Assembly (NCBI GenBank): GCA_031360575.1
Contig: JANMBU010000056.1
Span: 1,376-65,375 of the forward strand
Length of the DNA stretch: 64,000 nt
Reading direction: 5' to 3'
DNA from: Gemmatimonadaceae bacterium
GTDB taxonomy: Bacteria; Gemmatimonadota; Gemmatimonadetes; Gemmatimonadales; Gemmatimonadaceae
Position numbers and translations under genes: made by a program. Under the pieces are notes generated by a model. It made no database searches and was not told the DNA's origin. It saw only the letters and a program-made list of their open reading frames with translations. This document shows, piece after piece, positions 1-64,000 of the stretch (the first letter of the stretch is position 1; each line of letters opens with the position of its first letter).

Positions 1-2
1 TC

Positions 3-1931
3 ATGCGCTTCGCGCGGGAGCATGGCGCCGACGGAGTTCTCGATTACCCGGGGCTCTATCGCTGGTCGATCGAGCATCCGGCGCAGTTCTGGCCGGCGAT
101 CTGGAAGTGGTGCGATGTCGTGTGTGCGGAGCGCGATCGCGGCGAGCCATGGGACGAGGTTGTGATCGGGCTCGATCGGATGGCGCCGCCGGATCCCGAG
201 ATCGGCCCGCGCTGGTTCAGCGGCGCGCGCCTCAACTTCGCCGAGAACCTGCTCCGCCATCGGGGGCCCGAGGCGGCAATCACCGCGTGGAACGAGCAGG
301 GATGCTATCGCTCACTGTCGTTCGACGAGCTGCGCGACGAGGTCGCGCGGGTTGCGCGGGCGCTGCGAGCGATGGGGGTCAGACGCGGCGACCGCATCGC
401 CGGCTTTCTCCCTAACGTTCCGGAGGCGGTGATCGCGATGCTGGCAACGGCGAGCATCGGCGCGCTCTGGTCGTCGTGCTCGCCCGATTTCGGGGTGAAG
501 GGAGTGCTCGACCGCTTCGGCCAGATTGAGCCGAGGGTGTTGTTCTGCGCCGACGGCTATCGCTACGCGGGGAAAGAGATCGACTGCCTCGAGCGGGTGC
601 GCGAGATCGTCGACGCGCTGCCGCAGCTCGAGCGGGTGGTCGTCGTACCCTATCTCACTCCCGATCCCGACGCGCGGATGATCCGCCGCGCGGTGGGGTG
701 GCGCGACTTCGCCCCGGACGACGAATTTCCCCCGCCGCTCGAATTCGAGCGGCTGCCCTTTGACCACCCGCTCTACCTCCTCTACTCGTCGGGAACGACG
801 GGCCTGCCGAAGTGCATGGTGCACGGCGCGGGTGGCACACTGCTCCAGCACCTCAAGGAGCTGGCCCTTCATACCGACATCGGAGAGGGTGACCGGCTGT
901 TCTACTTCACCACCTGCGGATGGATGATGTGGAACTGGATGGTCAGCGCGCTCGCGTTAGGCGCGAGCGTCGTGCTCTACGACGGTGCGCCGCTGGCGCC
1001 CGATCCGGCAATTCTCTGGAAGATGGCCGAGCGCGAGCGGGTGACGGTGTTCGGCACGAGCGCGAAATACCTCGCGCTCCTCGAGAAGACCGGCCTCGAG
1101 CCGGCGAAATCCTACGACCTCGGCGCGCTGACGGCGGTACTGTCCACCGGGAGCCCGCTGGCCGTCCACAGCTACGACTTTGTCGCGCGGGCGATCGGTG
1201 CCGACGTGCGGCTGAGCAGCATCAGCGGCGGCACCGACATCGTCTCCTGCTTCGCGTTAGGCAACCCGATTACCCCGGTGTGGCGGGGCGAGCTGCAGTC
1301 GCGCGGACTGGGGATGGCAGTCGAGATCTGGGATGAGGCGGGGCGGCCGGTGACTGGCGTGAGCGGAGAGCTGGTCTGCACACGGCCCTTCCCGAGCATG
1401 CCGCTGGCGTTCTGGCGCGACCCCGATGGGGCGAAGTACCGCGCGGCATATTTCGACTACTATCCTAACGTCTGGCGACATGGCGACTGGGCGGAGCACA
1501 CCGAACACGATGGCCTGGTGATCCATGGCCGGAGCGATGCGACGCTGAATCCGGGCGGGGTTCGCATCGGCACGGCGGAGCTCTATCGCCAGGTCGAGCA
1601 ATTGCCAGAGGTAATCGAGAGTCTGGCGATCGAGCAGATGGTGGGCGAAGATGAGTCGCGCGTCGTACTCTTTGTCCGGCTCCGCGACGGTGTGCTGCTG
1701 ACCGACGCGCTGCGCGATGAGATTCGTCGCCGCATCCGCGAGCACACGAGCCCACACCACGTGCCGAAGAAAATCGTGCAGGTCACCGACCTCCCGCGAA
1801 CGATCAGCGGCAAGATCAGCGAGCTCGCCGTGCGGGACGTCGTCCACGGGCGGGCGGTGAAGAACAGCGACGCGCTAGCCAACCCGACGTCGCTCGGGCT
1901 CTTCCGCGACATGCCGGAGCTGCGCGACTGA
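3..1931 (+). CDS. aacS: acetoacetyl-CoA synthetase (acetoacetate-CoA ligase); N-terminus probably lies left of the window
   Basis: 642-aa ORF. It has the N-terminal 'YRWSIEHPAQFWPAIWKW' region, the AMP-binding signature 'LLYSSGTTGLPKCMVH' and C-terminal 'PRTISGKISE'. The frame is open to the window edge. Confidence 0.9.
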   Translation: MRFAREHGADGVLDYPGLYRWSIEHPAQFWPAIWKWCDVVCAERDRGEPWDEVVIGLDRMAPPDPEIGPRWFSGARLNFAENLLRHRGPEAAITAWNEQGCYRSLSFDELRDEVARVARALRAMGVRRGDRIAGFLPNVPEAVIAMLATASIGALWSSCSPDFGVKGVLDRFGQIEPRVLFCADGYRYAGKEIDCLERVREIVDALPQLERVVVVPYLTPDPDARMIRRAVGWRDFAPDDEFPPPLEFERLPFDHPLYLLYSSGTTGLPKCMVHGAGGTLLQHLKELALHTDIGEGDRLFYFTTCGWMMWNWMVSALALGASVVLYDGAPLAPDPAILWKMAERERVTVFGTSAKYLALLEKTGLEPAKSYDLGALTAVLSTGSPLAVHSYDFVARAIGADVRLSSISGGTDIVSCFALGNPITPVWRGELQSRGLGMAVEIWDEAGRPVTGVSGELVCTRPFPSMPLAFWRDPDGAKYRAAYFDYYPNVWRHGDWAEHTEHDGLVIHGRSDATLNPGGVRIGTAELYRQVEQLPEVIESLAIEQMVGEDESRVVLFVRLRDGVLLTDALRDEIRRRIREHTSPHHVPKKIVQVTDLPRTISGKISELAVRDVVHGRAVKNSDALANPTSLGLFRDMPELRD

Positions 1932-2758
1932 TGCCGATCGGCCGGAAGTACCTGCGCGGCCACGAGGATGGCTTCGAATGGCGTGGCCGCGAGGTGTCGC
2001 GGCTCGAAGGGCTGAGCGACGCGGTGTTCGGCTTCGCAACCACGCTGCTCGTCGTCTCGCTCGAGGTGCCACGAAGCGTGGAGGAACTGTTGCACGCAAT
2101 GCGCGGATTCGTCGGCTTCGCACTCAGCTTCGCGCTGCTCTTCCGGCTCTGGGGGTATCAGTATCGCTTTTTCCGCCGTTATGGTCTCGAGGATCCGACG
2201 ACCATCCGCTTGAATGGGGTGCTGCTGTTCGTCGTGCTGTTCTTCGTCTATCCGCTCAAGTTCCTGACGCAGGCGCTGACGGATTTCTTCTTCAACGACA
2301 CGTTCGCCGGCCTGCGCCCGGGCATGCTCACGCGTGCGCTCGCAGGGGGCGGGTTCGATCTGCTGCTGATGTTCTACGCCGGCTTCGGCACGGTCTTCCT
2401 CGTCCTCGGGCTGATGTACCTGCACGCCTATCGCTTGCGCGAGCAGATCGGACTGAATGAGCTCGAGTCGCTCGATACCCGGATCACCTGCGAGCGTCTG
2501 ATGCTGCCACTCCCGGTGTTTCCGCTCGGCGTCGGGTTGATGTGGTTGGCGTCGCTCGACAAGGAGACGCTGACCTCCGTAGCCGGAAAGCGGACCGTGA
2601 TTGCTGTCGCGCTGCTTGGTGACGCGGCGATGTTCGCGTACCTCGGCTGGGCTGTGTGGCGCGTGAGGAAACTGAAAAGCCGCCGGGACGCCCTGGAACA
2701 GGCGATGATCGACGCCGACCGCGGTGACTCGGGGCACATCCTCCCGGTGGCGGTGTAA
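1931..2758 (+). CDS. DUF1211/TMEM175-family membrane protein (putative K+ channel)
   Basis: 275 aa with about 6 hydrophobic helices. Helix 1 carries 'RLEGLSDAVFGFATTLLV', an RxxxxSD-type TMEM175 signature. Its ATG overlaps the aacS stop (TGATG at 1929-1933). Confidence 0.75.
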   Translation: MPIGRKYLRGHEDGFEWRGREVSRLEGLSDAVFGFATTLLVVSLEVPRSVEELLHAMRGFVGFALSFALLFRLWGYQYRFFRRYGLEDPTTIRLNGVLLFVVLFFVYPLKFLTQALTDFFFNDTFAGLRPGMLTRALAGGGFDLLLMFYAGFGTVFLVLGLMYLHAYRLREQIGLNELESLDTRITCERLMLPLPVFPLGVGLMWLASLDKETLTSVAGKRTVIAVALLGDAAMFAYLGWAVWRVRKLKSRRDALEQAMIDADRGDSGHILPVAV

Positions 2759-3795: not shown

Positions 3796-3890
3796 GGCGT
3801 GCGGCCGGCAACGCCTGACGATGCCGGCCGCTGACGTGAACAGCGCATCGCGATCTACAACCGGGTAATACCCTGGACGGAGTGATTCCC

Positions 3891-5036
3891 ATGGCGACGA
3901 CGATCGAAACCGCACCGAACGCGGCACCGGCGACCGACACGTTCCCGATCAACGGGACGGACTACATCGAGTTTTACGTCGGCAATGCGAAGCAGGCGGC
4001 GCACTTCTACCGCTCGGCGTTCGGCTTCCAGCTGGTCGGCTACCGTGGGCCGGAGACAGGCGTGCGCGACCGCGCCAGCTATCTGCTGCAGCAGGACAAG
4101 ATCCGCTTCGTCATGACGACGCCGATTCGCCCCGACATCAGTGAAGAGTCGAAGGTGATCGCCGCGCACATCGACCGGCACGGCGATGGCGTCCGCGACC
4201 TCGCGCTCTGGGTGGACGATGCTCGCGATGCGTTCCGAAAGGCGGTCGAGCGGGGCGCGGTGCCGGTGCACCAGCCGCGCGTGCTGAAGGACAGCGACGG
4301 CGAGATCGTCATTGCCTCGTTCCAGACCTACGGCGAGACAATCCACTCGCTTGTTGAGCGAAAGAACTACAAGGGCTTGTTCATGCCCGGCTTCGTTCCC
4401 GTAAAGCCGTACTGCAACCCCGCGCCCGTCGGGCTGAAGTACGTCGACCATTGCGTCGGCAACGTCGAGCTGGGGAAGATGAACGTCTGGGTCGAGTTCT
4501 ACGCGCACGTCATGGGGTTCCGCAACCTGCTTACCTTCGACGATGAGGACATCTCGACGGAGTACTCGTCGCTGATGTCGAAGGTGATGGCCAATGGAAA
4601 CGACCGGATCAAGTTCCCGATCAACGAGCCAGCGTCAGGCAAGAAGAAGTCGCAGATCGAGGAATACCTGGACTTCTACGGCGGCCCCGGGGTGCAGCAC
4701 ATGGCGCTGGCCACCGACGACATCGTCAAGACGGTGACGCAGCTTCGCGACCGCGGCGTCGAGTTCCTGTCGGCGCCGACGACCTACTACGCTGAGCTGC
4801 AGCAGCGGGTCGGGAAGATCGATGAACCGCTCGACGTGCTCGCATCGTTAGGCATCCTCGTCGATCGCGATCCCGATGGCTACCTGCTCCAGATCTTCAC
4901 CAAGCCGGTCGAGGATCGTCCGACCGTGTTCTACGAGATAATCCAGCGAAAGGGCGCCAAGAGCTTCGGGAAGGGGAACTTCAAGGCACTGTTCGAATCG
5001 ATCGAGCTGGAGCAGGCAAAGCGCGGGAATTTGTAG
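3891..5036 (+). CDS. hppD: 4-hydroxyphenylpyruvate dioxygenase
   Basis: Two VOC-fold halves and the C-terminal 'FGKGNFKALFESIELEQAKRGNL'. ATG 3891 follows GGAG (3879-3882). The ORF-track GTG at 3882 is an alternative start. Confidence 0.92.
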   Translation: MATTIETAPNAAPATDTFPINGTDYIEFYVGNAKQAAHFYRSAFGFQLVGYRGPETGVRDRASYLLQQDKIRFVMTTPIRPDISEESKVIAAHIDRHGDGVRDLALWVDDARDAFRKAVERGAVPVHQPRVLKDSDGEIVIASFQTYGETIHSLVERKNYKGLFMPGFVPVKPYCNPAPVGLKYVDHCVGNVELGKMNVWVEFYAHVMGFRNLLTFDDEDISTEYSSLMSKVMANGNDRIKFPINEPASGKKKSQIEEYLDFYGGPGVQHMALATDDIVKTVTQLRDRGVEFLSAPTTYYAELQQRVGKIDEPLDVLASLGILVDRDPDGYLLQIFTKPVEDRPTVFYEIIQRKGAKSFGKGNFKALFESIELEQAKRGNL

Positions 5037-5053: not shown

Positions 5054-5857
5054 GTGCTCGTCACCTTTGTGCGGCCCGGCGGTGCGCGCGGCGGCGTCGG
5101 CACCGGCGAGAACGCCTGCGTCGGGCTGCTGTCGGCGGACGGCGGACGGGTGGCCGACCTGACCGCGATCGGAATGGAAGACGTGTTCGCGGCGCTCCCT
5201 CGCGTGGCGCAACTCGAGCGGCTGCTCACGCACCTGACGGCAACACCGGGCGCCGTCTCGTACGATGTCGGGAGCGTCCGGCTGCTGGCGCCCGTGCCCT
5301 ACGCCCGCCTGGTGCGCGACGTGGCGGCGGTCGCGCCTGACGGCGCCGATGTTGCAGCGCTGCGCTTCAGCGATCCGCGAGAGATCGCCGGGCCCGGCGC
5401 ACGCATCTCGGTGGATGGCAGCGAGCTGCTCGCCGTCGGCGTCATCGCAGCGATCGGTACCGGCGGACGCGACATCGCCGCGGACGACGGCATCGCGCAC
5501 CTCGCCGGCGTGACGATGTTCGCCGAGTGGCGGAGCGCCGATCCCGACGCCGAGGTGGCGAGCGACCGGCTGCTCAGCGGGCCCGCGCTTGCGCCGATGA
5601 CGGCGTTGACCGACGATGCCGAGCTGCTGGTGACGGTGCCGCGCGAGAGCGTCCGCCGTATACCGCTGGCCGGCGCCAGTAAAGCGTTAGGCGCCGCGGT
5701 CGCCGCGGCGTCCGCCCGCTACACGCTGCGCGCCGGCGACCTGTTCCTCCACGACGCCGGAGTCGTTGACTCGCTGCTCGGCGCGCGGGAGTCAGGCGAG
5801 ATCACCATCGATGGACCGTCGGGCACACTGTCGCACACCGCGACGCGATCGGATTGA
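5054..5857 (+). CDS. divergent FAH-fold (fumarylacetoacetate hydrolase family-like) protein
   Basis: 267 aa. Segments 'VRLLAPVP', 'GSELLAVGVIAAIG', 'IAHLAGVTMFAEWRSAD' and 'RAGDLFLHDAGVV' line up with FAH-family blocks, but the acidic metal ligands look partly replaced. GTG start with GAGG 8 nt upstream. Lies between hppD and hmgA. Confidence 0.55.
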   Translation: MLVTFVRPGGARGGVGTGENACVGLLSADGGRVADLTAIGMEDVFAALPRVAQLERLLTHLTATPGAVSYDVGSVRLLAPVPYARLVRDVAAVAPDGADVAALRFSDPREIAGPGARISVDGSELLAVGVIAAIGTGGRDIAADDGIAHLAGVTMFAEWRSADPDAEVASDRLLSGPALAPMTALTDDAELLVTVPRESVRRIPLAGASKALGAAVAAASARYTLRAGDLFLHDAGVVDSLLGARESGEITIDGPSGTLSHTATRSD

Positions 5858-5924: not shown

Positions 5925-7118
5925 ATGCCATTCTATCACACGTTAGGCAGGATTCCCCGCAAGCGCCACATCGCCTTCCGGAAACCGGACGGCGGTCTCT
6001 ACGCCGAGCAACTGGTCGGCCACGAGGGATTCACCGGCACGTCGGCGCTGCTCTACCACACCCATCCGCCGACGACCATCAGCTCAGTGCGCCGGGTGAA
6101 GGAGATGCCATTCGTCGCCGATGAAGACCAGACGCTGCGCCACCGGCATTTCCGCACCGCCCAGGCGAAGAAGGGGGGCAGCGCGACGCTCGATCGCATT
6201 CCCCTGCTCTTCAACGCCGACGTCGCGATGCTCTACGTCGAGCCGGATAAGGTCGATACCCATTTCTATCGCAACGCGCAGGCGGACGAGCTGGTTTACG
6301 TCGCGAAGGGGAAGGGAACCCTCGACACGCAGTATGGCGAGCTCCCGTTCAGCGAGGGCGACTACCTGGTGATCCATCGCGGCATCATGCACCAGTACCG
6401 TTTCGAGAAGGGCGCCGAGCAGGCGAAGCTGCTCGTCATGGAGAGCCGCGGTCACGTGCGCTGGCCGAAGCGCTATCGGAACGAGTTCGGGCAGCTCATC
6501 GAGGGCGCGCCATTTTCCGAGCGTGACGTGCGCGTACCGACAAACCTGAAGACGCACGACGAGAAGGGTGACTTCTCGATCTACGTCAAGCAGTACGACG
6601 GGATCAACGAGCTGGTGCTCGATCATCACCCGTTCGACGTGATCGGCTGGGATGGATATTTCTATCCGTGGGCGTTCAACATCCGCGACTTCGAGCCGAT
6701 CGTGGGACGCGTGCACCAGCCGCCCCCGGTGCACCAGACCTTCCAAGGCGACGGCTTCGTCGTCTGCTCGTTCTGCCCGCGGCCGTATGACTTCGATCCC
6801 GAAGCGGTGCCCGCGCCCTACAACCACAGCAACGTCGACTCCGACGAAGTGCTGTACTACGCCTCGAGCGAATTCATGTCGCGGAAGGGGATCGAGTTCG
6901 GCAGCATCACGCACCACCCGGACGGGTTGCCTCACGGTCCGCATCCGGGGCGCGCCGAGGCGAGCATCGGCGCCAAGTTCACCGACGAGCTGGCGGTGAT
7001 GATGGATACCTTCCGCCCGCTCAAGGTCGCGAAGCAGGCACTCGACTTCGAAGATCCGAAGTACCACCGAAGCTGGATCGACGCACAGCACATGCAATTC
7101 AATCCACCGACGTCGTGA
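5925..7118 (+). CDS. hmgA: homogentisate 1,2-dioxygenase (short type)
   Basis: ATG 5925 gives 'MPFYHTLGRIPRKRHIAFRKPDGGLYAEQLVGHEGF...', typical of roughly 390-aa HmgA proteins. The 53 upstream codons in the ORF track are Arg-rich and overlap the previous gene. Confidence 0.88.
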   Translation: MPFYHTLGRIPRKRHIAFRKPDGGLYAEQLVGHEGFTGTSALLYHTHPPTTISSVRRVKEMPFVADEDQTLRHRHFRTAQAKKGGSATLDRIPLLFNADVAMLYVEPDKVDTHFYRNAQADELVYVAKGKGTLDTQYGELPFSEGDYLVIHRGIMHQYRFEKGAEQAKLLVMESRGHVRWPKRYRNEFGQLIEGAPFSERDVRVPTNLKTHDEKGDFSIYVKQYDGINELVLDHHPFDVIGWDGYFYPWAFNIRDFEPIVGRVHQPPPVHQTFQGDGFVVCSFCPRPYDFDPEAVPAPYNHSNVDSDEVLYYASSEFMSRKGIEFGSITHHPDGLPHGPHPGRAEASIGAKFTDELAVMMDTFRPLKVAKQALDFEDPKYHRSWIDAQHMQFNPPTS

Positions 7119-8365: not shown

Positions 8366-8367
8366 TA

Positions 8368-9600: not shown

Positions 9601-9647
9601 GTTGCTGTTATCTCGCGTGGCCACCAGGTGGCCGCAAGGGTTCTCGC

Positions 9648-10895: not shown

Positions 10896-10904
10896 GCATG
10901 CGCC

Positions 10905-23293: not shown

Positions 23294-23303
23294 AGCGAGC
23301 TGC

Positions 23304-36462: not shown

Positions 36463-36594
36463 TCGTGTTCACGGGGAAATTCGCTTGACAAAGCCGCAGC
36501 CCGAGCCGCAATTTCCCGCGCGGTTGATACCCACCTCGCTGGGCCGGCGCCTCTGGTTCCCTCGCCTGTCCCTAACGCCCTGGAGAACACCAGT

Positions 36595-38061: not shown

Positions 38062-38114
38062 TCGGTCGACGTTAGGCAACTACAGACGCGGCGCCCGGCG
38101 GTCCTGCGGGCGCC

Positions 38115-52869: not shown

Positions 52870-52906
52870 GCCGTACGTGCGAGCGACGGCGTTGTGTCGC
52901 AGAAGA

Positions 52907-54076: not shown

Positions 54077-54183
54077 GCCGATACTCTGTGAAGGTTGACC
54101 GGAAAGCTAACGCCGCCGCCGAGTCGCGGGGGGAGAATGCCGACGTTCTCGAAGTGGATACATGTGAAGGCAGGAGTTGATCG

Positions 54184-55239: not shown

Positions 55240-55248
55240 CGGGGAGAG

Positions 55249-56691
55249 TCAGGGGCTCACTTCGATGGTGGCGGGCTGTTTGTAGGCGCTGAGGCGACGC
55301 TCGCACCAGGCGCGAACTTGCTCTTGGGTAACCGACCCCCGCACACTGAGCGCGATGTCATTTTCGCGGAGTTGATCGGGGAATGCTGCGACGGCGGCCG
55401 ATCGCACTCCGGGAAGCTCGCGGACAGCCGCTTCGATCTCGCGCGGGTAGATGTTGAAGCCGTTCCTCGTGAACATCGCCTTGGCCAGTCCGCGAAAGGC
55501 GACCGACCCATCGGCGCATCGCGCGCCAAGATCTCCCGTGCGGAGCCATCCATCGCGGACATCCAGCCCGGCGGGGGGCGGAGCGCCGGGGGCCTGGACA
55601 TAACCGGCAAATACCGTATCACCGCGGACGCAGATCTCGCCGGTGGTCCCATCTGGAACGGTCGCGAAACTCGACTGGTCGCGAATCACGACCTCGACGC
55701 CCGGGTATGGCGTCCCTAACGCTCCACGAACGTTAGGGAGCAAGATCGCATTGAACAGCGCCACCGGTGAGGCCTCGGTCAGCCCGTAGCCCTGTCGCAG
55801 CTCGATGCCGGTCGCGTCGAACCAGCGGTCCTGCACCTCGGTACGCAACACGGCGCCGCCGCAGATGGCGAGTCGCAGAGTGCCCGGAGCGAGGCCGCGA
55901 CCGCGTCGCTCCATGGCGGCGAGCAACGCGACGAACATCGCTGGGACGCCGACGAAGAGCGACGAGCGTTCTCCCTCGAGCGACTCGAGCGCTGTCAGGG
56001 GGTTGAACCGGGGCATCGTCGTGATGCGCGTGCCGGCAAGCAGCGGCGCAACGCCGCTGACGACCAGACCGAACAGATGCGAGTAGGGGAGCGCCGCAAG
56101 TACGTGTTCAGAACCAGTAAACGCGGCAGCAGCGATCGTCGCACGGCTGTTCGCGAGCAGGTTGCGGTGCGTGAGGATGGCACCGAGGGGCCGGCCCCGC
56201 ATCGCTGACGTGTAGACGATGACCGCTTCCTCGGGAGACCCAGCCGCGTCTGGATCGCCCTCGACATCGAATGCGTAGTGGGAGCCGAGGTCGATGCTGC
56301 GACTGGTCCCGCCGATTGCGACGGTCGCCCGCCGGGGCGCCTCGTCGAGAAGTACGCGCGGGATCTCGGGCGGAAGCTGCGGCGCGAGCTCGGCGATGGT
56401 GAACACTGCGCCGACGTTTGCGTCGGAGAGCTGATACGCCAGCTCCGGTGGCGCGGCGAGAGGATTCATCAGCACGGCGCCGCGACCCTCGCTCGCGGCG
56501 AGCGCGATGAGGAAGGCGGGCGACGTGGGAAGAAGGAGAGCGGATCGCTTGCCGGCGAGCGCGCGGACGAGCGGCGCCGAGCGCTGGAGAAGCGTTAGGC
56601 CGGCGGCGACAAGGGTCGGCGCGGGAATACCGTCGATCGAGCCGCCGCGCGATGCCGCGGCGAGAGGGAGCAGCGCGAGGGGGTCGGTCAC
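55249..56691 (-). CDS. AMP-dependent acyl-CoA synthetase/ligase
   Basis: 480 aa with 'YTSAMRGRPLGA' (a degenerate AMP motif), 'GYGLTE' and 'LRTGDLG'. Confidence 0.8.
   Translation of the reverse strand: MTDPLALLPLAAASRGGSIDGIPAPTLVAAGLTLLQRSAPLVRALAGKRSALLLPTSPAFLIALAASEGRGAVLMNPLAAPPELAYQLSDANVGAVFTIAELAPQLPPEIPRVLLDEAPRRATVAIGGTSRSIDLGSHYAFDVEGDPDAAGSPEEAVIVYTSAMRGRPLGAILTHRNLLANSRATIAAAAFTGSEHVLAALPYSHLFGLVVSGVAPLLAGTRITTMPRFNPLTALESLEGERSSLFVGVPAMFVALLAAMERRGRGLAPGTLRLAICGGAVLRTEVQDRWFDATGIELRQGYGLTEASPVALFNAILLPNVRGALGTPYPGVEVVIRDQSSFATVPDGTTGEICVRGDTVFAGYVQAPGAPPPAGLDVRDGWLRTGDLGARCADGSVAFRGLAKAMFTRNGFNIYPREIEAAVRELPGVRSAAVAAFPDQLRENDIALSVRGSVTQEQVRAWCERRLSAYKQPATIEVSP
55713..55739. 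repeat. inverted pair of the genome-wide word (TCCCTAACG-n9-CGTTAGGGA) inside the acyl-CoA ligase CDS
   Basis: Read directly: 9-bp perfect arms at 55713-55721 and 55731-55739 with a 9-nt spacer. The element encodes ...PNVRGALG.... Confidence 0.9.
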
Positions 56692-56707
56692 CGCCGGAAG
56701 TTAGCGG

Positions 56708-58543
56708 TCAGATCTCGAAACGGGACATCGCCGACTTGAGGCGCGACGCGATCTCGGCGAGATGCTGGCTCGACTCGGTCACATGCGTCATCGATGCGGT
56801 CTGCTCCTGCACGACGGCGCTGACCTCTTCGGAGGTTGAGGCATTGGTCTCGGCGACAGTCGCAATGGCTTCGATTTCGCGCGCCAGACCCTCTGCCTCG
56901 CCGCGCTGCGATTCGGCGGCGCCGACGATCTGGGCCACTGCACGCCGGCTCTCGTCGATCTCGCGGCCGATCTGGGTGAGTGCGGCGGCCGATGCGCGAA
57001 TGACCTCCGCCCCGTTGTTCACGCGCTCACTGACCTGCGTGATGCGCTCGCCGGTGCGGACGGATGCGGTGCGCATCTCGCCGGCGAGCTTGCGGATCGT
57101 GTCGAGCGCGCGGGCGGTCTCACCGGCGAGCTTGCGCACTTCGTCGGCGACGACGGCGAAGCCCTTGCCATGCTCGCCGGCGCGCGCCGCTTCGATGGCT
57201 GCGTTGAGGGCGAGCAGGTTGGTTTGGCGGGCGATTGCGGCAATGGTGTCGGCGACCTTGCCGATACGCTGCGACTTTTCCCCAAGCTCCTCGACGGCGG
57301 GTACCGTTTCGTTGGTGACCTCGGTAATCGCACCCATGCTCTCGAGCGCTTCCTGCGCCGACGCGACGCCGCGCTGCGCGGAGAGCGTCATCGTGTCCGC
57401 CGCCGCCTGCGCGGCGCGCGCGTGCTCGACGGTTTCCATCGCGCGCTCGACGACGCGTGAGGACGCGCCGACGATCTTGCTGATGCCTTCCGTCTGGATG
57501 GCGGCGGATTCGGCGATCGAGTGCGCGGCAGCGGCGACTTCCTCGGTCGATGCGCTCATCTGCTGTGCGCCGGAGGCGAGTTCCTCGGCGGTGGCGGCAA
57601 CTTCGGTGGCGCCGACCTCCAGGTCGCGCACGAGGTCAGCGAGGCTGTGCGTCATTCGTCGAAAGGACTCGGCGAGCGATCCGATTTCGTCGTTGCCACG
57701 GAAGGCGAGGTCATGGCGCAACTGGCCGCGAGCGACAGCCTCGGCGTGTTCGGCGACCATCTCGACGCCGCGCGTTAGGCGGCGGGCGGCGAGATCGGCA
57801 CCGAACAGGACGAGGATGAGCGCAAGCGCGGGGTACACGGCGAACTTGACGAGCCGGTCGCGGAAGTTGGCGACGATGTCGTCGGTGCGCATCATGGTCA
57901 CGACAAAGCCGGCGGGGCTACCGCCGACGCGAGTGACCGGCGCGGCGGCGATGACCATCGTCCCGACAATACTGTCGGTAACCTGACTCCACGCGGCACG
58001 CCCGCGAGCCATCGAGTCGGCGAGCTCGGGAGGCGGCGTCCAGCGACGGTTGTACTGAGGCTGGCCGGCATTCCATGACGAATGGACGAGGTACCGGTAG
58101 CGCCCCCCCTCGCGCCGGAGCACGGCAAGGCCATTCGCGAGTTGACTGACGTCGCCGCCATTGGCAGCCCAGAGCCGCTTGAGCATCGATCGGCCGAACG
58201 CGAAGGCCGACCCATCACGGCCATCGGGATTGGCGATCGCGTCGAGCGTGTCGGCGGGCAGCATCGCTGCGGTGGTGCGCGCGATGGCGAGCAGGCGGCG
58301 GCCGTGCGCATCGGACAGCTCCTGCTCCGACGAGCGGTACAACGGCACGAGAACGAGGACCAAGGTCACGAGCACCGCGCCGGCGCTGAGGAACGCGAGC
58401 TTGGCGCGGAACGACCAGGTAGTTGACCGGCGGGCGTGCTGCACGAAGAGAAGGGTCGTTCGAGGAGGACTGCAGCGGAAAGACGCCGTGCTGGGGGGTG
58501 AAGTAAAACCCTCGAGGCGCAGCGCAGGGGTGCCCGCAGGCAC
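56708..58543 (-). CDS. methyl-accepting chemotaxis protein
   Basis: Has a TM helix, a periplasmic sensor region, a second TM helix and HAMP, plus the signalling domain '[37 protein letters not shown]'. The start is uncertain (GTG 58543 or GTG 58444). Confidence 0.88.
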
Positions 58544-58593
58544 GCCGAGGGGCGATAATTAGCGGGCGGGCGAACCGGCGAACGGAGGCGGCG

Positions 58594-59961
58594 ATGTACG
58601 AGGGGTTGATGGTCAGCGTTTCTGGAGTGCGGGGACGCGTCGGCGACGCGTTGACTCCGGAGATCGTGGCGAAGTTCGCGTCCGCCTTTGGCGCATGGGC
58701 GCTGGCGCCGGGGCGGTCGAAGCTCGTCGTCGTCGGTCGCGACAGCCGCGTCTCCGGACCGATGTTTCACCGGATCGTCACCGGCGCGCTGCAGTCCGTA
58801 GGGGCGACGGTAATCGACATCGGCATGTCGACGACTCCGACGACCCAGATGGCCGTCGAGCACCATCACGCGGCCGGTGGGCTCATGATCTCGGCGAGCC
58901 ACAACCCGATCGAGTGGAATGCGCTGAAGATGATCGGACCGAGCGGGCTGTTCCTCGACGCGATCGAGGGCGCGGCGATGCGCGAGCTGATGGAAGCAGG
59001 GCCGATTCGCGCGAAGTGGAACGAACTTGGGGAAGTGGTGGCGGACGACGAGGCGATCAACCGGCATGTGGACGCCGTGCTGGCGCTGCCCTTCATCGAC
59101 TTCGCCATGATCCGCGCGCGGAAGTTCAGAGTGGCATTCGACCCGTGCCGAGGCGCTGGGGCGGCGATCGTTCCGCAGCTGCTCGAATGGTTCGGTTGTA
59201 CCGTGTCGACGATCAACCTCGAGCCCGACGGGCGGTTTCCGCGCCCGCCGGAGCCGATCCCGGAAAATCTCGGGGAGCTTGAGCGGCTGGTGCGCGAGAG
59301 CGGCGCCGACATCGGCCTGGCGGTAGACCCTGACGTCGATCGGTTGGCGCTGGTCGACGAGACGGGACGCGCCATCGGCGAGGACTACACGCTTGCGCTG
59401 GCGGCAAAGCTCGTGCTTCGCTACCGGAAAGGTCCGGTGGTGATCAATCTCTCGACGAGCCGGGTGGTGGACGACGTGGCGCTGGCGGCTGGGGCGCCGG
59501 TCATCCGCGCGCCGGTCGGGGAGGTGAACGTCGCGCTCCGGATGCGCGCCGAGCGCGCCGCGATCGGCGGCGAGGGAAACGGTGGGGTCATCCTCCCCGA
59601 ACTCCATCTCGGACGCGATGCGCCGTTAGGCATCGCGATCATCCTGCAACTGATGGCCGACGAAGGGCGGCCGCTCTCGGCGATCGTGGCCGACCATCCG
59701 CGCTACACGATCGTGAAGGACAAGCTCGATCGGCCGGACGCCGCACTGACGACGGTCTACGAAGCGCTGCGCGTCGCGTTTCCCGACGCTGAGGCGGACA
59801 TGCAGGACGGATTGCGGCTGGCGTGGCCCGATCGCTGGGTCCACATTCGGCCATCAGGAACGGAACCCATCGTGCGAGTGATCGCCGAGGCGCCGACCGC
59901 GGCGGAAGCAAAGGACCTCGTCGCGCGGTCCCGGGTACCGCTCGACGCGCTCGGACGTTGA
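58594..59961 (+). CDS. phosphohexomutase (phosphoglucosamine mutase / phosphomannomutase family; GlmM role plausible from adjacency to glmS)
   Basis: 455 aa with the active-site 'SASHNPIEWNALK' and the Mg loop 'AVDPDVDR'. Confidence 0.85.
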   Translation: MYEGLMVSVSGVRGRVGDALTPEIVAKFASAFGAWALAPGRSKLVVVGRDSRVSGPMFHRIVTGALQSVGATVIDIGMSTTPTTQMAVEHHHAAGGLMISASHNPIEWNALKMIGPSGLFLDAIEGAAMRELMEAGPIRAKWNELGEVVADDEAINRHVDAVLALPFIDFAMIRARKFRVAFDPCRGAGAAIVPQLLEWFGCTVSTINLEPDGRFPRPPEPIPENLGELERLVRESGADIGLAVDPDVDRLALVDETGRAIGEDYTLALAAKLVLRYRKGPVVINLSTSRVVDDVALAAGAPVIRAPVGEVNVALRMRAERAAIGGEGNGGVILPELHLGRDAPLGIAIILQLMADEGRPLSAIVADHPRYTIVKDKLDRPDAALTTVYEALRVAFPDAEADMQDGLRLAWPDRWVHIRPSGTEPIVRVIAEAPTAAEAKDLVARSRVPLDALGR

Positions 59962-59994
59962 TCGGGCGCGAGACATCAGGAGCCAAGGAAGATC

Positions 59995-61821
59995 ATGTGT
60001 GGCATTGTCGGATACGTCGGACCGCGTGAAGCGACGCCGGTCCTGCTCTCGGGGCTGAAGCGGCTGGAGTATCGCGGCTACGACTCAGCCGGTGTCGTCC
60101 TCCTCAACGGGAAGGGACTCGAGACGCGTAAGGCAGTGGGCAAGATCGCGATGCTCGAGAGCGTAGTCACCGCCGATCCGATCCTTGGCACGACGGGCAT
60201 CGGCCACACGCGCTGGGCGACCCACGGGGTGCCTAACGAGTGCAATGCGCATCCGCATCATGACTGTTCCGGCACAATCGCAGTCGTGCATAACGGGATC
60301 ATCGAGAACTTTGGCGCGCTGCGGAACATGCTCGAGCAGCACGGCCACACCTTCGTGTCGGAGACCGATACCGAGGTGCTGGCCCACCTGATCGAGGCGG
60401 CGTTCGACGGAAACCTCGAGGAGGCGGTGACCGACACGCTGCACCTCGTCGAGGGGACGTACGGGATCGCCGTCGTGAGCAGCAAGGATCCGGGGAAGAT
60501 CGTCGCGGCGCGAAAGGGAAGCCCGCTGCTCCTTGGACTGGGCGACGGGGAGAATTTCCTGGCGAGCGACGTCGCCGCGATCCTGCAGTATACGCGCGAC
60601 GTGGTCTATCTCGACGACGGCGAGATGGCGGTGATCACCGCCGACAGCTACAAGGTGTTCGACCTCCAGTCGATCGCGCGGGAGAAGCGCGTGAACAAGA
60701 TCGATTGGGACCTCGACATGATCGAGAAGGGCGGCTTCGCGCACTTCATGCTCAAGGAGATTTTCGAGCAGCCGACGACGATCGAGAACACGATGCGCGG
60801 CCGTCTGGTCGTCGAGGACGGCTTCTCGAAGCTGGGTGGGCTCAACCTGACGAAGGAAGAGCTGCTCAACATCGACAACATCGTCATAACGGCGTGCGGA
60901 ACGAGCTGGCATTCGGCGCTGATCGGCGAGCTGCTGATCGAGGAGCTGGCGCGCATCCCGGTCGAGGTCGAGTATGCGTCGGAGTTTCGCTACAGGAACC
61001 CGATCATCACGCCGCGCACGCTGTGCATCGTGATCTCACAGTCGGGGGAAACGGCGGATACCCTGGCAGCGATGCGCGAGGCGAAGCGGCGCGGCGCGAA
61101 GACGCTCGGCCTGGTGAACGTCGTCGGCTCGACGATCGCGCGGGAAGACGACGGCGGCATCTACCTGCACGCTGGTCCGGAGATCGGCGTGGCGAGCACG
61201 AAAGCGTTCACCAGCCAGGTGATCGCCCTGCTGCTGCTGACGCTGAAGCTGGCGCGGTTGCGCGACCTGTCGGTGGTGCGTGGCCGCGAGATTGCGCTCG
61301 CGATGCTCGAGCTCCCGGGGCAGATCCAGCAGATTCTCGACCGGGCGCCGGAGATCGAGGCGGTGGCGGAGAAGTTCATGGACGCGACCAATTTTCTCTA
61401 TCTGGGACGCGGACTGAACTTTCCCGTCGCGCTCGAGGGCGCATTGAAGCTGAAGGAGATCAGCTACATCCACGCCGAGGGGTACCCGGCGGCCGAGATG
61501 AAGCATGGACCGATCGCGCTCATTGATGCGAACATGCCGGTGGTCTTCATCGCACCGCACGATGCGGTGTTCGAGAAGGTCGTGTCGAACGTCCAGGAAG
61601 TGAAGGCGCGCGGCGGACGGGTGATCGTGCTGACGAGCCGCGATGAGCCGGGCTTGAAGAAGCTGGTCGACCACGAATTCCGCATTCCGGAGACGCTGGA
61701 CATGCTGTATCCGGTGCTGGCGGCGATCCCGCTGCAACTGCTGGCGTACTATATCGCCGCGAAGCGCGGGTTGAACGTGGACCAGCCGCGGAACCTGGCG
61801 AAGTCGGTGACGGTGGAGTAG
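59995..61821 (+). CDS. glmS: glutamine-fructose-6-phosphate aminotransferase
   Basis: 608 aa with the N-terminal 'MCGIVGY', two SIS domains and C-terminal 'NLAKSVTVE'. Confidence 0.95.
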   Translation: MCGIVGYVGPREATPVLLSGLKRLEYRGYDSAGVVLLNGKGLETRKAVGKIAMLESVVTADPILGTTGIGHTRWATHGVPNECNAHPHHDCSGTIAVVHNGIIENFGALRNMLEQHGHTFVSETDTEVLAHLIEAAFDGNLEEAVTDTLHLVEGTYGIAVVSSKDPGKIVAARKGSPLLLGLGDGENFLASDVAAILQYTRDVVYLDDGEMAVITADSYKVFDLQSIAREKRVNKIDWDLDMIEKGGFAHFMLKEIFEQPTTIENTMRGRLVVEDGFSKLGGLNLTKEELLNIDNIVITACGTSWHSALIGELLIEELARIPVEVEYASEFRYRNPIITPRTLCIVISQSGETADTLAAMREAKRRGAKTLGLVNVVGSTIAREDDGGIYLHAGPEIGVASTKAFTSQVIALLLLTLKLARLRDLSVVRGREIALAMLELPGQIQQILDRAPEIEAVAEKFMDATNFLYLGRGLNFPVALEGALKLKEISYIHAEGYPAAEMKHGPIALIDANMPVVFIAPHDAVFEKVVSNVQEVKARGGRVIVLTSRDEPGLKKLVDHEFRIPETLDMLYPVLAAIPLQLLAYYIAAKRGLNVDQPRNLAKSVTVE

Positions 61822-61851
61822 GGGACACCGCGCGGGGCGTTCGGTCGGAGC

Positions 61852-61900
61852 AGTAAGCCATAAGTCATTAGCTGTTAGCCATTAGCTGTTAGCGTTGAGC
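61852..61900. repeat. seven tandem heptamers (consensus nnTTAGC), including a perfect 14-bp duplication
   Basis: The run reads AGTAAGC CATAAGT CATTAGC TGTTAGC CATTAGC TGTTAGC GTTGAGC. CATTAGCTGTTAGC occurs twice (61866-79 and 61880-93). It lies in the glmS-dtd intergenic region. Confidence 0.85.
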
Positions 61901-61989
61901 GACGGCGGAACGGCAACAGGCGACAGCGGGCGGACCGTTAGGCGAGCGGCGGCGGTACGGCAGGTGGGGCTCAGCTACCATCCCTTGGA

Positions 61990-62442
61990 ATGCGAATCCT
62001 GTTGCAGCGGGTAGCGAGGGCGGAGGTGCGGGTCCGGATGCCCGATGGGTCTTCGCGGCCGTCGGGACGGATCGGGCGCGGGTATGTGCTGCTCGTCGGA
62101 ATCACGCACGACGACACTGACGAGCGGGCGGCATGGATGGCGGACAAGGTTGCCGGGCTGCGGTTGTTCGGCGACGGCGAGGGGAAGATGAACCTCGCGC
62201 TTGGCGACGTTGGGGGCGGGGTGCTCGCGGTTTCGCAGTTCACGCTCTACGGCGATGCGGCGAAGGGGCGGCGCCCGAGCTTCATCGACGCGGCGCGGCC
62301 GGAGATCGCCGAGCCGCTCTACGCCCGCTTCGTCGCGATGCTGCGGGCGCGGAGCCTAACGGTCGAGACGGGAGAGTTCGGGGCGATGATGGATGTGGAA
62401 CTGGTGAACGACGGACCGGTCACGCTCTGGCTCGAGCGATGA
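61990..62442 (+). CDS. dtd: D-aminoacyl-tRNA deacylase
   Basis: 150 aa with 'MRILLQRV' and 'SQFTLYGD...GRRPSF'. Confidence 0.9.
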
Positions 62443-63053
62443 CCATCGCACCGGAGCTCGTGCTCGCGTCGCAGTCGCCGCGGCGGCGCGAACTGCTCGC
62501 GCTGATCGGACTGGCGCACGACGTCCGTCCGGCGAACATCGACGAATCGCACCAGAGCGGAGAGACGCCCGAGGGTCACTGCGAGCGCCTGGCGCGGGGA
62601 AAGGCGATGGCCCTGCGCGGAAGCGTCAATGCGGATGCGGTGATCGTCGGGAGCGACACCATCGTCGTCGTCGACGGGGAGGTGCTGGGAAAACCGGATG
62701 GGGCGAACGACGCGGCGCGGATGCTCCGGCTGTTGAGTGGCCGCTCACATACGGTGCTCACCGCGGTGGCGGTCGCGCGAGGCGCGCGAATCGAGAGTTC
62801 GGTCGAGCGGGTCTCGGTCACCTTCCGCCAACTGAGCGACGCGGAGATCGCCGCATATATCGCGACGCGCGAGCCGATGGACAAGGCGGGCGCATACGGT
62901 ATTCAGGGATTTGGTGCGACGATCGTGTCGCGGATCGACGGCGACTATTTTGCGGTGATGGGACTTGCGCTCAACCTCCTCGTGCGATTGCTCGCGCGGG
63001 TGGGGCTGCGCTACGAGTTCGGACGGCTCGTCGAGACAGCGCCCATCCCGTAA
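62439..63053 (+). CDS. maf: Maf-like nucleoside triphosphate pyrophosphatase
   Basis: ATG 62439 overlaps the dtd TGA (ATGA). Contains '[14 protein letters not shown]' and '[10 protein letters not shown]'. Confidence 0.88.
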
Positions 63054-64000
63054 CGCGACGCGTAGGCCGTTCGCCACAGTTCGACGCGATCAAGGACGGC
63101 ACGGACCGTGATGCGCGGCATGCGGCCCGGCCGGTTCTCCATCGACACGGGGTAATCCTCGCCCGGGTCTCCGTAGGCGTCGATCATGAGATCGTGGAAC
63201 TTGCGATACGGCCCGACTCGTTTCGGGTTCGAGTACGCGATGAGCGACACTACCGGGCGGTCGAGCGCGACCGTCACGTGCAGCGGACCGGTATCCGGCG
63301 AGAGCACCAGTGCCGATCCATCGATGATCGACACCAGGCGGCGCAGGCCACTGCCTAACGCTGATACCGGAGTGCAGCGGGTGTTGTCCATGATGGCGCG
63401 CTCGGCCGCCAGCTCGCGCGACGAACGCCCGCCGACAAGCACTGGCTGCAGGCCGAAGTCGTGCCAGAGTGCATCGCAGACCGCTGCCCACCGGTCAGGC
63501 ATCCAGTCCTTGTCCGCCTTGCTCGTCGCGACGACGATGCTGGCAGTCGGCCGCTCGAGCGCGCCGAAAAACTCGCGCTGCCACGGCCGCTCCTCCGGCC
63601 AGGGACCGAGCCGCCATTGCACCGGACCGGCGGGCACGCCTAACGGCTCGAGGAACTCGAGATACTGGTCCTGGACATGCTGCATCGCGTGCGGGTCGAT
63701 GCGACGGTTGGTGAACAGCCAGTTGAGGTCGCGCGCGCGGGCTCGATCGAAGCCGAGCTTGACGTCGGCCGGTGTAATTGCAGCGACGATGCCTGCCTTG
63801 AAGTAAACCTGCAGGGCGAGGGCGACGTCGAAGCGACGCGACGCGAGCTGGCGGCGCAGGTCGAGATAGGCGCGCGGTCCCTTCGACCGGTCGAAGAGGA
63901 GAATCTCGTCAACGGATTCGTGGCCGCGGACGAGGCCGGCCGGCCCGGGCTGCATGATCCAGCTGATTCGCGCGGTCGGATGCGCGCGCTTGATGGCGTT
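63011..64000 (-). CDS. glycosyltransferase family 9 (heptosyltransferase-like), 5' end beyond the window
   Basis: Contains 'FDVALALQVYFKAG' and 'VLSPDTGPLHVTVAL'. The frame stays open to 64000 ('NAIKRAHPTARISW...'). The 3' end overlaps maf by 43 nt. Confidence 0.75.
   Translation of the reverse strand, partial: NAIKRAHPTARISWIMQPGPAGLVRGHESVDEILLFDRSKGPRAYLDLRRQLASRRFDVALALQVYFKAGIVAAITPADVKLGFDRARARDLNWLFTNRRIDPHAMQHVQDQYLEFLEPLGVPAGPVQWRLGPWPEERPWQREFFGALERPTASIVVATSKADKDWMPDRWAAVCDALWHDFGLQPVLVGGRSSRELAAERAIMDNTRCTPVSALGSGLRRLVSIIDGSALVLSPDTGPLHVTVALDRPVVSLIAYSNPKRVGPYRKFHDLMIDAYGDPGEDYPVSMENRPGRMPRITVRAVLDRVELWRTAYASRYGMGAVSTSRPNS

Follow-up and report, generated by a model that had tools for sequence, protein, structure and literature searches.

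A dense, strand-symmetric 8-base DNA word in a Gemmatimonadaceae genome and a patchy subset of its relatives

Sites and abundance of the word in the window

In the metagenome-assembled genome of a soil bacterium of the Gemmatimonadaceae, the 8-base word CGTTAGGC recurs about once per 1.5 kb. The window, by which we mean the whole 64-kb stretch analyzed (GC content 66.1%), holds 47 exact copies of the 7-mer CGTTAGG (0.73 per kb), and 37 of these are full CGTTAGGC. Three further copies of GTTAGGC lack the 5' C, at 20751-20757 (+), 22286-22292 (-) and 34488-34494 (-). All of these coordinates and counts reproduce those of the original prediction, as does its frame census exactly: 25 copies in frame NCG-TTA-GGN, nine in CCT-AAC-G, five in CTA-ACG, none in GTT-AGG, three supplying a stop codon and five intergenic. 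MoeA, which it had named as a word-carrying gene, contains only the GTTAGGC variant at 22286. In what follows, copies given as CGTTAGGg or CGTTAGGa match the 7-mer, all others are complete CGTTAGGC, and signs denote strands.

The largest class is read in the gene sense. As GCG-TTA-GGC (Ala-Leu-Gly) the word lies at 955-962 (+) and 1255-1262 (+) in the acetoacetate-CoA ligase gene (3-1931 +), 5685-5692 (+) in gene 5054-5857 (+), 8512-8519 (-) in a DapE/ArgE-like peptidase gene (8368-9624 -), 16879-16886 (+) in an acyl-CoA (GcdH-like) dehydrogenase gene, 21948-21955 (-) in a SAM-methyltransferase-fold gene (21327-22031 -), 25559-25566 (-) in the PTPS gene (25484-25909 -), 41395-41402 (+) and 41707-41714 (+) in the MatE gene (40530-41909 +), 45340-45347 (-) in gene 45211-45807 (-), and 63353-63360 (-) in a heptosyltransferase (GT9) gene. 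As ACG-TTA-GGC it lies at 5941-5948 (+) in an HmgA-like gene (5925-7118 +), 18412-18419 (+) in EtfA (18252-19244 +), 24279-24286 (-) in the S13 D-Ala-D-Ala carboxypeptidase gene (23304-24734 -), 25002-25009 (-) in a MobA-like gene (24882-25487 -) and 47995-48002 (-) in a small gene (47887-48117 -). TCG-TTA-GGC is found at 4846-4853 (+) in the 4-hydroxyphenylpyruvate dioxygenase gene (3882-5036 +) and 53075-53082 (-) in a Cys/Met-metabolism PLP enzyme gene. CCG-TTA-GGC is found at 11514-11521 (-) in gene 10905-12359 (-), 20951-20958 (+) in an Fe-S/CCG oxidoreductase gene (19255-21357 +), 59624-59631 (+) in a phosphoglucosamine-mutase-like gene (58594-59961 +) and 63638-63645 (-), again in the GT9 gene. 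Three CGTTAGGg copies complete the class: CCG-TTA-GGG at 25243-25249 (-) in the MobA-like gene and 40612-40618 (+) in MatE, and GCG-TTA-GGG at 55715-55721 (-) in an AMP-binding enzyme gene (55249-56691 -).

Antisense copies read as CCT-AAC-G (Pro-Asn) lie at 411-417 (-, CGTTAGGg) and 1464-1470 (-, CGTTAGGa) in the acetoacetate-CoA ligase gene, 10283-10290 (-) in an MFS transporter gene (9648-10895 +), 18728-18735 (-) in EtfA, 19954-19960 (-, CGTTAGGg) in the Fe-S/CCG oxidoreductase gene, 35561-35567 (-, CGTTAGGa) in the IMP dehydrogenase gene, 42297-42304 (+) in a BrkB-like gene (41950-42924 -), 55731-55737 (+, CGTTAGGg) in the AMP-binding enzyme gene, and 60231-60238 (-) in GlmS. Antisense copies in the CTA-ACG frame lie at 27519-27526 (+; TGC-CTA-ACG) in the iPGM gene (27240-28763 -), 39428-39435 (-; CGC-CTA-ACG) in an Mrp/ParA-like ATPase gene, 56593-56600 (+; GGC-CTA-ACG) in the AMP-binding enzyme gene, 57773-57780 (+; CGC-CTA-ACG) in a HAMP/MCP gene (56708-58444 -), and 62354-62361 (-; AGC-CTA-ACG) in the D-Tyr-tRNA deacylase gene. 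As CGT-TAG, the word provides the TAG stop of the MFS transporter gene (10890-10897 +), the S13 carboxypeptidase gene (23302-23309 -, the 7-mer at 23303) and a SET-domain gene (48288-48659 +; word at 48654-48661 +). The intergenic copies are at 12467-12473 (-, CGTTAGGa), 12545-12552 (-), 36571-36577 (-, CGTTAGGg), 38070-38077 (+), which is 9 nt past the stop of an amino-acid permease gene, and 61936-61943 (+).

The excess over chance is large. Dinucleotide shuffles of the window give 2.56 7-mers and 0.97 8-mers (maxima 6 and 4), and first- to third-order Markov models give 0.7-1.2 8-mers, an excess of 30-50 fold over these nulls; the original prediction was right about the enrichment, and its zero-order expectation was too high. 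When synonymous codons were shuffled inside the 60 gene calls of the window, 2.3 and 1.1 in-gene copies were expected against 39 (7-mer) and 31 (8-mer) observed. No other dispersed 8-mer of the window comes close to CGTTAGGC in over-representation. Tolerance is graded: the word can vary at positions 1 and 8 and can have C for T at position 4, and the remaining one-off variants are at or below background. The core is GTTAGGC, with T or C accepted at position 4 in this lineage; we found no extended motif beyond CGTTAGGC and no indels. Spacing is random (coefficient of variation 1.04), with no regular period.

Codon choice and orthologous sites

The word takes precedence over codon preference and, at some sites, over the amino acid too. 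In the window 25 of 30 TTA codons lie inside it, and TTA codons are in word context at 70-75% in word-bearing genomes versus 0/34 in word-free genomes. It occupies 22 of 68 compatible xCG-TTA-GGC sites and 9 of 15 compatible CCT-AAC-G sites, and the GTT-AGG frame, though open, is almost unused (0/32 compatible sites in the window; 5/170 copies overall). At word sites, word-free orthologues have CTC/CTG or other residues. The EtfA site at 18728, CCT-AAC-GTC here, is mostly CCG-AGC-GCG in relatives. Residues differ from those of word-free relatives at 16879 (Ile to Leu; GCG-ATC-GGC in most), 27519 (Ala to Thr; TGC-CTG-GCG) and 20951 (Arg to Gly; CCG-CTG-CGC and similar). The proteome is shifted towards the peptides that the word encodes: per 1000 amino acids, [ATPS]-L-G occurs 3.3-3.6 times in bearing versus 2.6 in word-free proteomes, and P-N-[VADEG] 0.54-1.13 versus 0.38.

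Word sites are kept above the synonymous, neutral background. In relative L003, 8/11 are intact, compared with 27% of control 7-mers drawn from the genes that hold these sites; in L054 the figures are 8/8 and 65%. Gain of the word is ongoing and convergent, separate lineages having each acquired it on their own at the same pre-adapted sites. At 24280, 25560 and 27519 it is present in separate clades and missing from closer relatives; the S13 site at 24280 is absent from L003 and L004, yet present in the distant L072 and L082, and the PTPS site at 25560 bears it in L072, L082, L080 and L073. The original proposal that the target of the force is the DNA word, not the encoded protein, is supported: orthologues that lack the word retain identical or similar peptides spelled with ordinary codons, both orientations are enriched, and conservation of word sites exceeds that of the synonymous background.

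Distribution among genomes

The word is not limited to the window. The same contig carries it outside the window, and many related genomes have it too: in a patchily distributed subset of the relatives that is not monophyletic, it is the dominant word, at 0.4-0.9 per kb. Most other relatives lack it. Counts of 66 in 116 kb and 65 in 122 kb of word-bearing sequence compare with 2 in 494 kb from word-free related genomes, a difference of about 140 fold. In a five-protein tree the bearing lineages were monophyletic in 0/200 bootstraps, and at a second locus bearing and word-free lineages are likewise interleaved. The word is also abundant in a type strain in culture, Gemmatirosa kalamazoonensis KBS708: 250 kb sampled from its two megaplasmids contain 159 8-mers, and none of the 50-kb samples is without them. 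CGTTAGGC is a feature of the DNA itself, present in both orientations on the chromosome and on megaplasmids alike. Enrichment under a codon-aware null, occurrence beyond the window and conservation in relatives therefore leave the original prediction standing at the three points where it had been open to refutation.

Possible origins and comparison with known words

The best reading of CGTTAGGC, which we hold tentatively, is drive by uptake or transformation; the original interpretation as a whole is partly supported, and its uptake-signal component is a provisional one, drawn by analogy with known uptake words. CGTTAGGC would be a genome-wide 'self' word that accumulates through base substitution wherever coding permits. 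The likely cause would be a sequence-biased step in DNA exchange, in which fragments with the word are preferentially taken up or transformed, as happens for Pasteurellaceae USS, Neisseriaceae DUS and, recent evidence suggests, cyanobacterial HIP1. A surface or periplasmic DNA receptor might read it, alleles mutating towards it would be over-transmitted through recombination (molecular drive), and in lineages without the reader it would decay to background. No Gemmatimonadota are known in the literature as naturally transformable, and comEA, comEC, dprA and pilQ were not found among the DNA segments examined. The only pilus-type gene near the window encodes an orphan PilB/MshE-like ATPase adjoining it, whose domain form does not follow word presence across the lineages compared.

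Alternatively, a repair ratchet may generate CGTTAGGC, or the word may be a binding site maintained by selection. A target of m6A or m4C methylation, which the original prediction had offered as an alternative, is disfavored because the published SMRT methylome of KBS708 has no such motif at CGTTAGGC (PMC3974934). A Chi- or KOPS-type signal is disfavored, as foreseen, by the absence of strand skew (21 7-mers on + and 26 on - in the window; 83 and 76 8-mers on the KBS708 megaplasmids).

To our knowledge, the only other bacterial words of such density and symmetry are USS, DUS and, as a third, HIP1; for USS and DUS, DNA uptake is proven. CGTTAGGC resembles these uptake sequences of Neisseria and Haemophilus, its signatures also match cyanobacterial HIP1, and we found no earlier report of it in the literature. 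HIP1 has been reported to raise transformation efficiency (10.64898/2026.06.24.733823), and the reported effect of USS on the proteome (PMC2817400) is paralleled by that of CGTTAGGC. In contrast, USS frames favor preferred codons (PMC2817400), whereas the most-used frame of CGTTAGGC needs the rarest Leu codon. DUS and USS, the model invoked originally, are inherited clade-wide with drifting dialects, unlike the single identical word seen here with its patchy, non-monophyletic spread. Inverted-pair terminators, which DUS and USS often form, are all but missing here. Neither the inverted pair nor the 3'-end placement once taken as hallmarks exceeds chance in the window: the only pair, with its left arm at 55715 and its right arm at 55731, compares with about 0.7 pairs within 20 bp expected by arithmetic. 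In L003, one copy of the word lies in a hairpin loop.

Abundance and placement of the word in the window

The original prediction described the 8-mer CGTTAGGC as an interspersed, uptake-signal-like word, and its coordinate list was reproduced in full: the 7-mer core CGTTAGG occurs 47 times in the window, 21 times on the plus strand and 26 times on the minus strand, and 37 copies carry the complete 8-mer. Three further copies of GTTAGGC, the variant without the 5' C, start at 20751, 22286 and 34488. The GC content of the window is 66.1%. Dinucleotide-preserving shuffles give expectations of 2.56 for the 7-mer and 0.97 for the 8-mer (maxima 6 and 4), and Markov models of order 1 to 3 predict 0.7 to 1.2 8-mers. 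Gene calling with a codon-usage model yielded 60 genes, which together occupy 94% of the window. When synonymous codons were shuffled within each gene, 1.1 8-mers and 2.3 7-mers were expected against 31 and 39 observed in genes, and the excess thus survives a codon-aware null.

As had also been claimed, the word shows no strand polarity (21:26). Its spacing in the window is random-like (coefficient of variation 1.04), and no regular spacing was found there at the kilobase scale. The flanks contribute little: positions -2 and -1 disfavour T, position 8 reads C in 37 copies, G in seven and A in three, and a purine comes next in 37 of the 47. The inverted pair at 55715/55731, put forward earlier as a hallmark, loses its force, since one pair in 64 kb compares with about 0.7 by chance (our arithmetic). 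In L003, one of the related loci compared with the window, the loop of a hairpin contains a single word copy. Scans of the window for tRNA genes, Rfam families and tandem repeats returned nothing relevant to the word, and domain annotation of the window genes, all ordinary housekeeping, revealed neither a DNA methylase nor a competence gene. Between 48000 and 56000 the cumulative GC skew has a minimum near 50-52 kb, where its sign changes from about -0.03 to about +0.1. This switch could be origin-like or simply a change of gene orientation; the orientation of the word is unchanged across it.

The frame census of the original prediction was exact: 25 copies are read as NCG-TTA-GGN, nine as CCT-AAC-G, five as CTA-ACG and none as GTT-AGG, three supply TAG stop codons and five are intergenic. 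The word contains 25 of the window's 30 TTA codons, and TTA-GGC encodes 24 of the 188 Leu-Gly dipeptides in the window, for which CTC-GGC is the usual choice. The fraction of synonymously compatible sites that are filled differs among frames: 22/68 for xCG-TTA-GGC, 9/15 for CCT-AAC-G, 5/29 for GC-CTA-ACG and 0/32 for C-GTT-AGG-C. This last, Val-Arg frame is nearly unused in bearing loci too (5 of 170 copies). GTT and AGG codons are no rarer in the window than TTA, CTA and CCT outside the word, and the avoidance of GTT-AGG may be an effect of tRNA supply.

That the force acts on the DNA word and not on the protein, as first proposed, is borne out by orthologues from genomes without word enrichment, which encode the same peptides with CTC or CTG and, at some sites, other residues. 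The word-free genomes have GCG-ATC-GGC at site 16879, TGC-CTG-GCG at 27519, CCG-AGC-GCG at 18729 and CCG-CTG-CGC at 20951, where the window has GCG-TTA-GGC, TGC-CTA-ACG, CCT-AAC-GTC and CCG-TTA-GGC, respectively. The codon alignments are collinear, with no indels at word sites. At 24280, 25560 and 27519 the word is found in separate clades and is missing from closer relatives; its gains are therefore convergent and continuing. The sites are also conserved, in line with the original reading, when compared with control 7-mers from the same genes and frames: in locus L054, at 93% nucleotide identity, 8/8 word sites are kept against 0.65 of controls. L003 keeps 8/11 against 0.27 (binomial p ~0.002 by our arithmetic), and a further related locus, L004, keeps 3/9 against 0.25, which is not significant.

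Distribution among related genomes

The window matches contig k141_5715780 of ENA ERZ27315166 and NCBI GCA_043735995.1, both metagenome-assembled. The ENA contig (L001, 1-14006) differs from window positions 49995-64000 at 12 of 14,006 bases and the NCBI MAG contig (L002) is identical to the window over 5.5 kb, so at least two near-identical strains have been sampled. The word is not confined to the window, in keeping with the original prediction: 20 copies lie in 21.8 kb beyond it, at equal density. A scan with the 700-aa Fe-S oxidoreductase, one genome per species, gave 80 syntenic loci, all from Gemmatimonadaceae/Gemmatimonadota MAGs. Among these, CGTTAGGC leads the dispersed 8-mers, at 0.5-0.9 per kb, in L003, L004, L054, L058, L031 and L035 and likewise in L047, L060, L072, L075, L079 and L082; it is weaker in L080, L073, L078, L050 and L032, and most of the other loci have none in 10-22 kb. 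Enrichment is about 140-fold, from 66 copies in 116 kb and 65 in 122 kb of bearing DNA versus two in 494 kb of word-free relatives. The background in unrelated metagenome contigs is five copies in 947 kb, a set drawn from a metagenome scan with an ATPase alignment and made up of only distant homologues from many taxa. One syntenic locus, L061, is titled a 'Gemmatimonas phototrophica' MAG and has 48% GC, against 60-73% in most other loci (L046 has 53%), with no word enrichment; its label or binning may be wrong.

The bearing genomes do not form one clade. In a locus-1 tree of five concatenated proteins (2322 columns, 30 genomes, 200 bootstraps) they fall into at least three separate groups and are monophyletic in 0/200 bootstraps, and L031 joins three word-free genomes in 147/200. 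Locus 2 is interleaved too, with one clade and L183 fully bearing, L097 weak, and L098, L179 and L184 empty. Both trees are of linked genes and not species trees, and repeated loss and lateral gain of a determinant look alike in them. Clade-wide sharing with dialects that drift along the phylogeny was found at neither locus. Nearly all of the top 8-mers in word-free relatives, considered as dialect words, proved to be local tandem arrays, and once these were removed no dispersed 8-mer stood out there. In one such locus, L024, CGACTACG was rejected as a dialect word because it is an Asp-Tyr codon artefact common everywhere. L032 has three copies of CGTTAGGC and nine dispersed copies of CGTTTGGC, of which the median elsewhere is zero per locus, and its branch neighbours one bearing clade. 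A weak candidate, CGTTTGGC may be a variant or a decaying form of the word.

In 279 kb of bearing MAG DNA there are 170 copies, of which 93 are read as Leu-Gly, 26 as Leu-Thr, 25 as Pro-Asn and five as Val-Arg, with six at stop codons and 15 intergenic; 88% are coding. The intergenic share is 8.8% of copies versus 7.1% of the DNA, intergenic enrichment is no more than about 1.2-1.7x, and no longer or extended motif was found around the 15 intergenic copies. The word leaves a footprint on the proteome. Per 1000 aa, [ATPS]-L-G occurs 3.3-3.6 times in bearing versus 2.6 times in word-free genomes, and P-N-[VADEG] 0.54-1.13 versus 0.38 times; per 1000 codons, TTA occurs 1.2-1.5 versus 0.23 times. 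One-off changes at positions 1 and 8 are tolerated. Co-enrichment of CGTCAGGC reaches 4-4.6 fold in the MAG lineages and is weak, about 1.6 fold, in Gemmatirosa. Some other one-off neighbours are under-represented in bearing genomes (CGTTCGGC at 0.6-0.7x, CGTTGGGC at 0.5x and CGGTAGGC at 0.3x), and several of the rest are at or under background.

The word is also present in the finished PacBio genome of KBS708, the cultured type strain of Gemmatirosa kalamazoonensis. Five 50-kb pieces of its two megaplasmids, taken from PLSDB, where no other Gemmatimonadota plasmids surfaced, hold 159 copies of CGTTAGGC, 83 on the plus and 76 on the minus strand, with 20-40 per sample and orientations of 19:11, 18:22, 15:18, 19:17 and 12:8. 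The logo there is C(85%)-GTTAGG-C(98%)-R(81%), and the density resembles that of chromosome-type contigs. SMRT sequencing is unreliable for m5C. The SMRT methylome of KBS708 contains only m6A, at RGATCY, ATGCAC and CCAGN7TCA (PMC3974934), and the word is therefore no m6A or m4C target in this strain. Across the Gemmatirosa samples, the longest interval without the word measures 7.9 kb (23403-31288 of L084, on plasmid 2); its GC content is slightly lower, and it consists mostly of a 1694-aa ORF without a Pfam family.

Candidate causes of the excess

Biased DNA uptake or transformation is ranked first, tentatively and at somewhat below an even chance, on the precedent of USS, DUS and the cyanobacterial word HIP1, the last of which is now reported to boost natural transformation (10.64898/2026.06.24.733823). 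The density, strand symmetry, substitution-only spread, frame bias, proteome footprint, graded tolerance and maintenance of the word are the signatures published for USS and DUS (PMC2817400; PMC1939737) and for HIP1 (PMC5861425). A motif scan of the DNA analysed for DprA, ComEA and secretin signatures gave no match. We found no literature on competence or transformation in Gemmatimonadota, none linking the phylum with uptake sequences or iterated words, and no paper containing the exact word.

About 6.3 kb past the 3' end of the window lies an orphan gene for a PilB/MshE-like ATPase with MshEN and T2SSE domains (10001-11758 of the related locus L088), with a DUF5686 and a NUDIX gene on either side in conserved synteny (L088, L090-L098, L179-L184). 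The protein occurs in forms of 580-612 aa and, with a C-terminal response-regulator receiver domain, of 745-771 aa. No pilus genes flank it at the examined loci, and a walk for a pilus operon failed to find any. This ATPase was considered as the determinant and rejected: the REC-less forms are all word-bearing, yet L183, which is REC-fused, is fully bearing, so the link between ATPase and word is one of phylogeny and not of cause.

An improbable alternative to uptake, though the strongest of them, is a ratchet of repair or gene conversion (the Elhai model for HIP1), in which near-cognate mismatches are corrected towards CGTTAGGC without DNA uptake. A sequence-directed mismatch-correction or short-patch system, possibly m5C-keyed, would write the word into any long-resident replicon. 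That Gemmatimonadaceae have acquired and lost such a system as one unit, with a drive independent of uptake, we likewise hold to be unlikely. The spread of the word by substitution alone, with zero indels, its equal density on chromosome-type contigs and two megaplasmids, and the depletion of some one-off neighbours are all consistent with it; the Poisson-like spacing is what a per-site process predicts, the patchy spread of one identical word would fit a cassette-borne determinant, and m5C is compatible with the SMRT data. Against this, a ratchet has been demonstrated in no organism, according to the literature, and no MTase or Vsr-like gene was seen among the window genes. A cytosine methylase with 8-bp non-palindromic specificity would be unusual. 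Moreover, a simple m5C-deamination hotspot converting CGTCAGGC to CGTTAGGC was rejected, since the two forms combined, C plus T, show an enrichment above 10-fold. If true, the uptake-independent account would make this the first demonstrable 'molecular ratchet', so far hypothesised only for HIP1.

With lower probability still, the word may be bound by an abundant protein that organises the chromosome, acts in segregation or associates with the nucleoid, with per-site selection keeping about one copy per 1.5 kb. Xu et al. argued for a chromosome-organising or binding role of HIP1 (PMC5861425). Conservation of sites above background and the presence of the word on all large replicons sampled agree with such a role, and presence and absence among lineages could track that of the protein. 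However, several thousand sites per genome would need selection stronger than codon bias, and even than amino-acid change, which we infer, following PMC1939737, is hard to sustain site by site without drive. The lack of kilobase-scale spacing, the slight intergenic enrichment, the lack of palindromy and the convergent gains at whatever sites happen to be compatible also argue against a binding protein.

It is very unlikely that the word is a self-marker for defence or nucleases, whether a Chi-like attenuator or a target of R-M, BREX or phosphorothioate-type modification. Like sites of the Chi, Type III and BREX kinds, the word is short and non-palindromic, and its patchy spread resembles that of defence systems. 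Neither the window nor the five 50-kb samples of two replicons show strand or replichore skew, however, and modification targets are usually neutral or avoided, not 140-fold enriched. The three motifs of the KBS708 methylome also speak against a self-marker. Protein-level or translational causes (selection for Ala/Thr/Pro-Leu-Gly peptides, bldA-like regulation through TTA, or a compositional artefact) would fit the 55% of copies in the single frame NCG-TTA-GGN and a sense:antisense ratio of about 2:1, but translation-level, peptide-level and artefactual causes are effectively excluded, since in other frames and between genes the reverse complement ranks just as much among the top words (51 antisense and 15 intergenic of 170), word-free orthologues encode identical peptides via CTC/CTG, codon-preserving shuffles leave about one copy, and the word occurs in a finished PacBio genome.

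Comparison with known words

To our knowledge only two proven uptake-sequence families, USS and DUS, and the long-unexplained HIP1 have been described, in phyla unrelated to Gemmatimonadota. The word is hyper-abundant like all three, yet it is unrelated in sequence, belongs to a new phylum, is non-palindromic (its reverse complement is GCCTAACG) and is patchy in distribution. Like the USS of Pasteurellaceae, with its 9-bp core AAGTGCGGT / ACAAGCGGT, it occurs about once per 1-1.5 kb in both orientations, mostly in genes and in few preferred frames, shifts tripeptide usage, tolerates mismatches in a position-graded way and spreads by substitution. For USS, 'genes without homologues lack USS', and the 7.9-kb word-free stretch of KBS708 is a single case pointing that way. 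Unlike USS, the word is patchy and not clade-wide, has no AT-rich flanking extension or extended motif that we could find, and forms no terminator-like inverted pairs; its favoured frame uses the rarest Leu codon, whereas USS frames use preferred codons (PMC2817400).

The DUS of Neisseriaceae, GCCGTCTGAA and its dialects, is read by the receptor ComP and is likewise short, non-palindromic, hyper-abundant and strand-symmetric. Differences in lineage tolerance (T/C at position 4 in the window clade versus a near-invariant position 8 in Gemmatirosa) may parallel DUS dialects, as possibly does CGTTTGGC in L032 as a lineage variant. However, DUS is concentrated in intergenic inverted repeats, and its dialects follow phylogeny; the word is predominantly coding, one identical form recurs across lineages that alternate with word-free genomes, and no ComP-like receptor was recognised. 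HIP1 (GCGATCGC) is also an octamer, propagated by substitution without indels and conserved in and between ORFs. It is 15-300-fold over-represented and in some lineages polyphyletic or missing; its function was long obscure. In contrast to the word, HIP1 is a palindrome containing DmtA and DmtC methylase targets, for which no m6A/m4C counterpart exists at the word in KBS708, and it shows 10-90 kb periodicity.

Chi, KOPS and architecture-imparting skewed octamers are, like the word, short, non-palindromic and over-represented, and they are read by DNA-processing machinery, as the word may be. Words of this type are strongly co-oriented with replication and few-fold enriched, whereas ours is distributed about 1:1 on the strands everywhere sampled and is more than 100-fold enriched.

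A third independent non-palindromic word suggests sequence-specific DNA exchange, or else a genome-writing process not known before, in a lineage of the uncultivated majority; Gemmatimonadota are an abundant but poorly studied soil phylum. The interleaved bearing and word-free genomes are natural contrasts in which a reader gene could be sought by phylogenetic profiling, and the question is directly testable because KBS708, cultured and with a finished genome, carries the word. The word is, moreover, a strong marker for the binning and taxonomy of these MAGs and accounts for their unusual TTA usage, and it may be required on DNA constructs for transforming these bacteria.

REP and MITE elements differ from the word, which has no conserved flanks, no block insertion or indels, and an 88% coding share. 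Repeats of other kinds are also present. At 61866-61893 of the window, upstream of the D-Tyr-tRNA deacylase gene, an intergenic perfect tandem duplication of the 14-mer CATTAGCTGTTAGC precedes the word copy at 61936 by 43 nt. Several other Gemmatimonadaceae loci, but not the window, contain intergenic arrays of short tandem units, mostly of 8 nt (for example GGTGGAAC x5), often as two inverted blocks and with a unit sequence that varies by genome. Such arrays flank an AT-richer stretch of about 250 bp in L006 (2370-2790), consist of irregular 8-24 nt units in L064 (1209-1298, 5802-5883, 6538-6619 and 7280-7345), occur in L077 (120-175), L029 (10293-10359) and L080 (20500-20552), and have a 19-nt unit in L009 (10978-11206).
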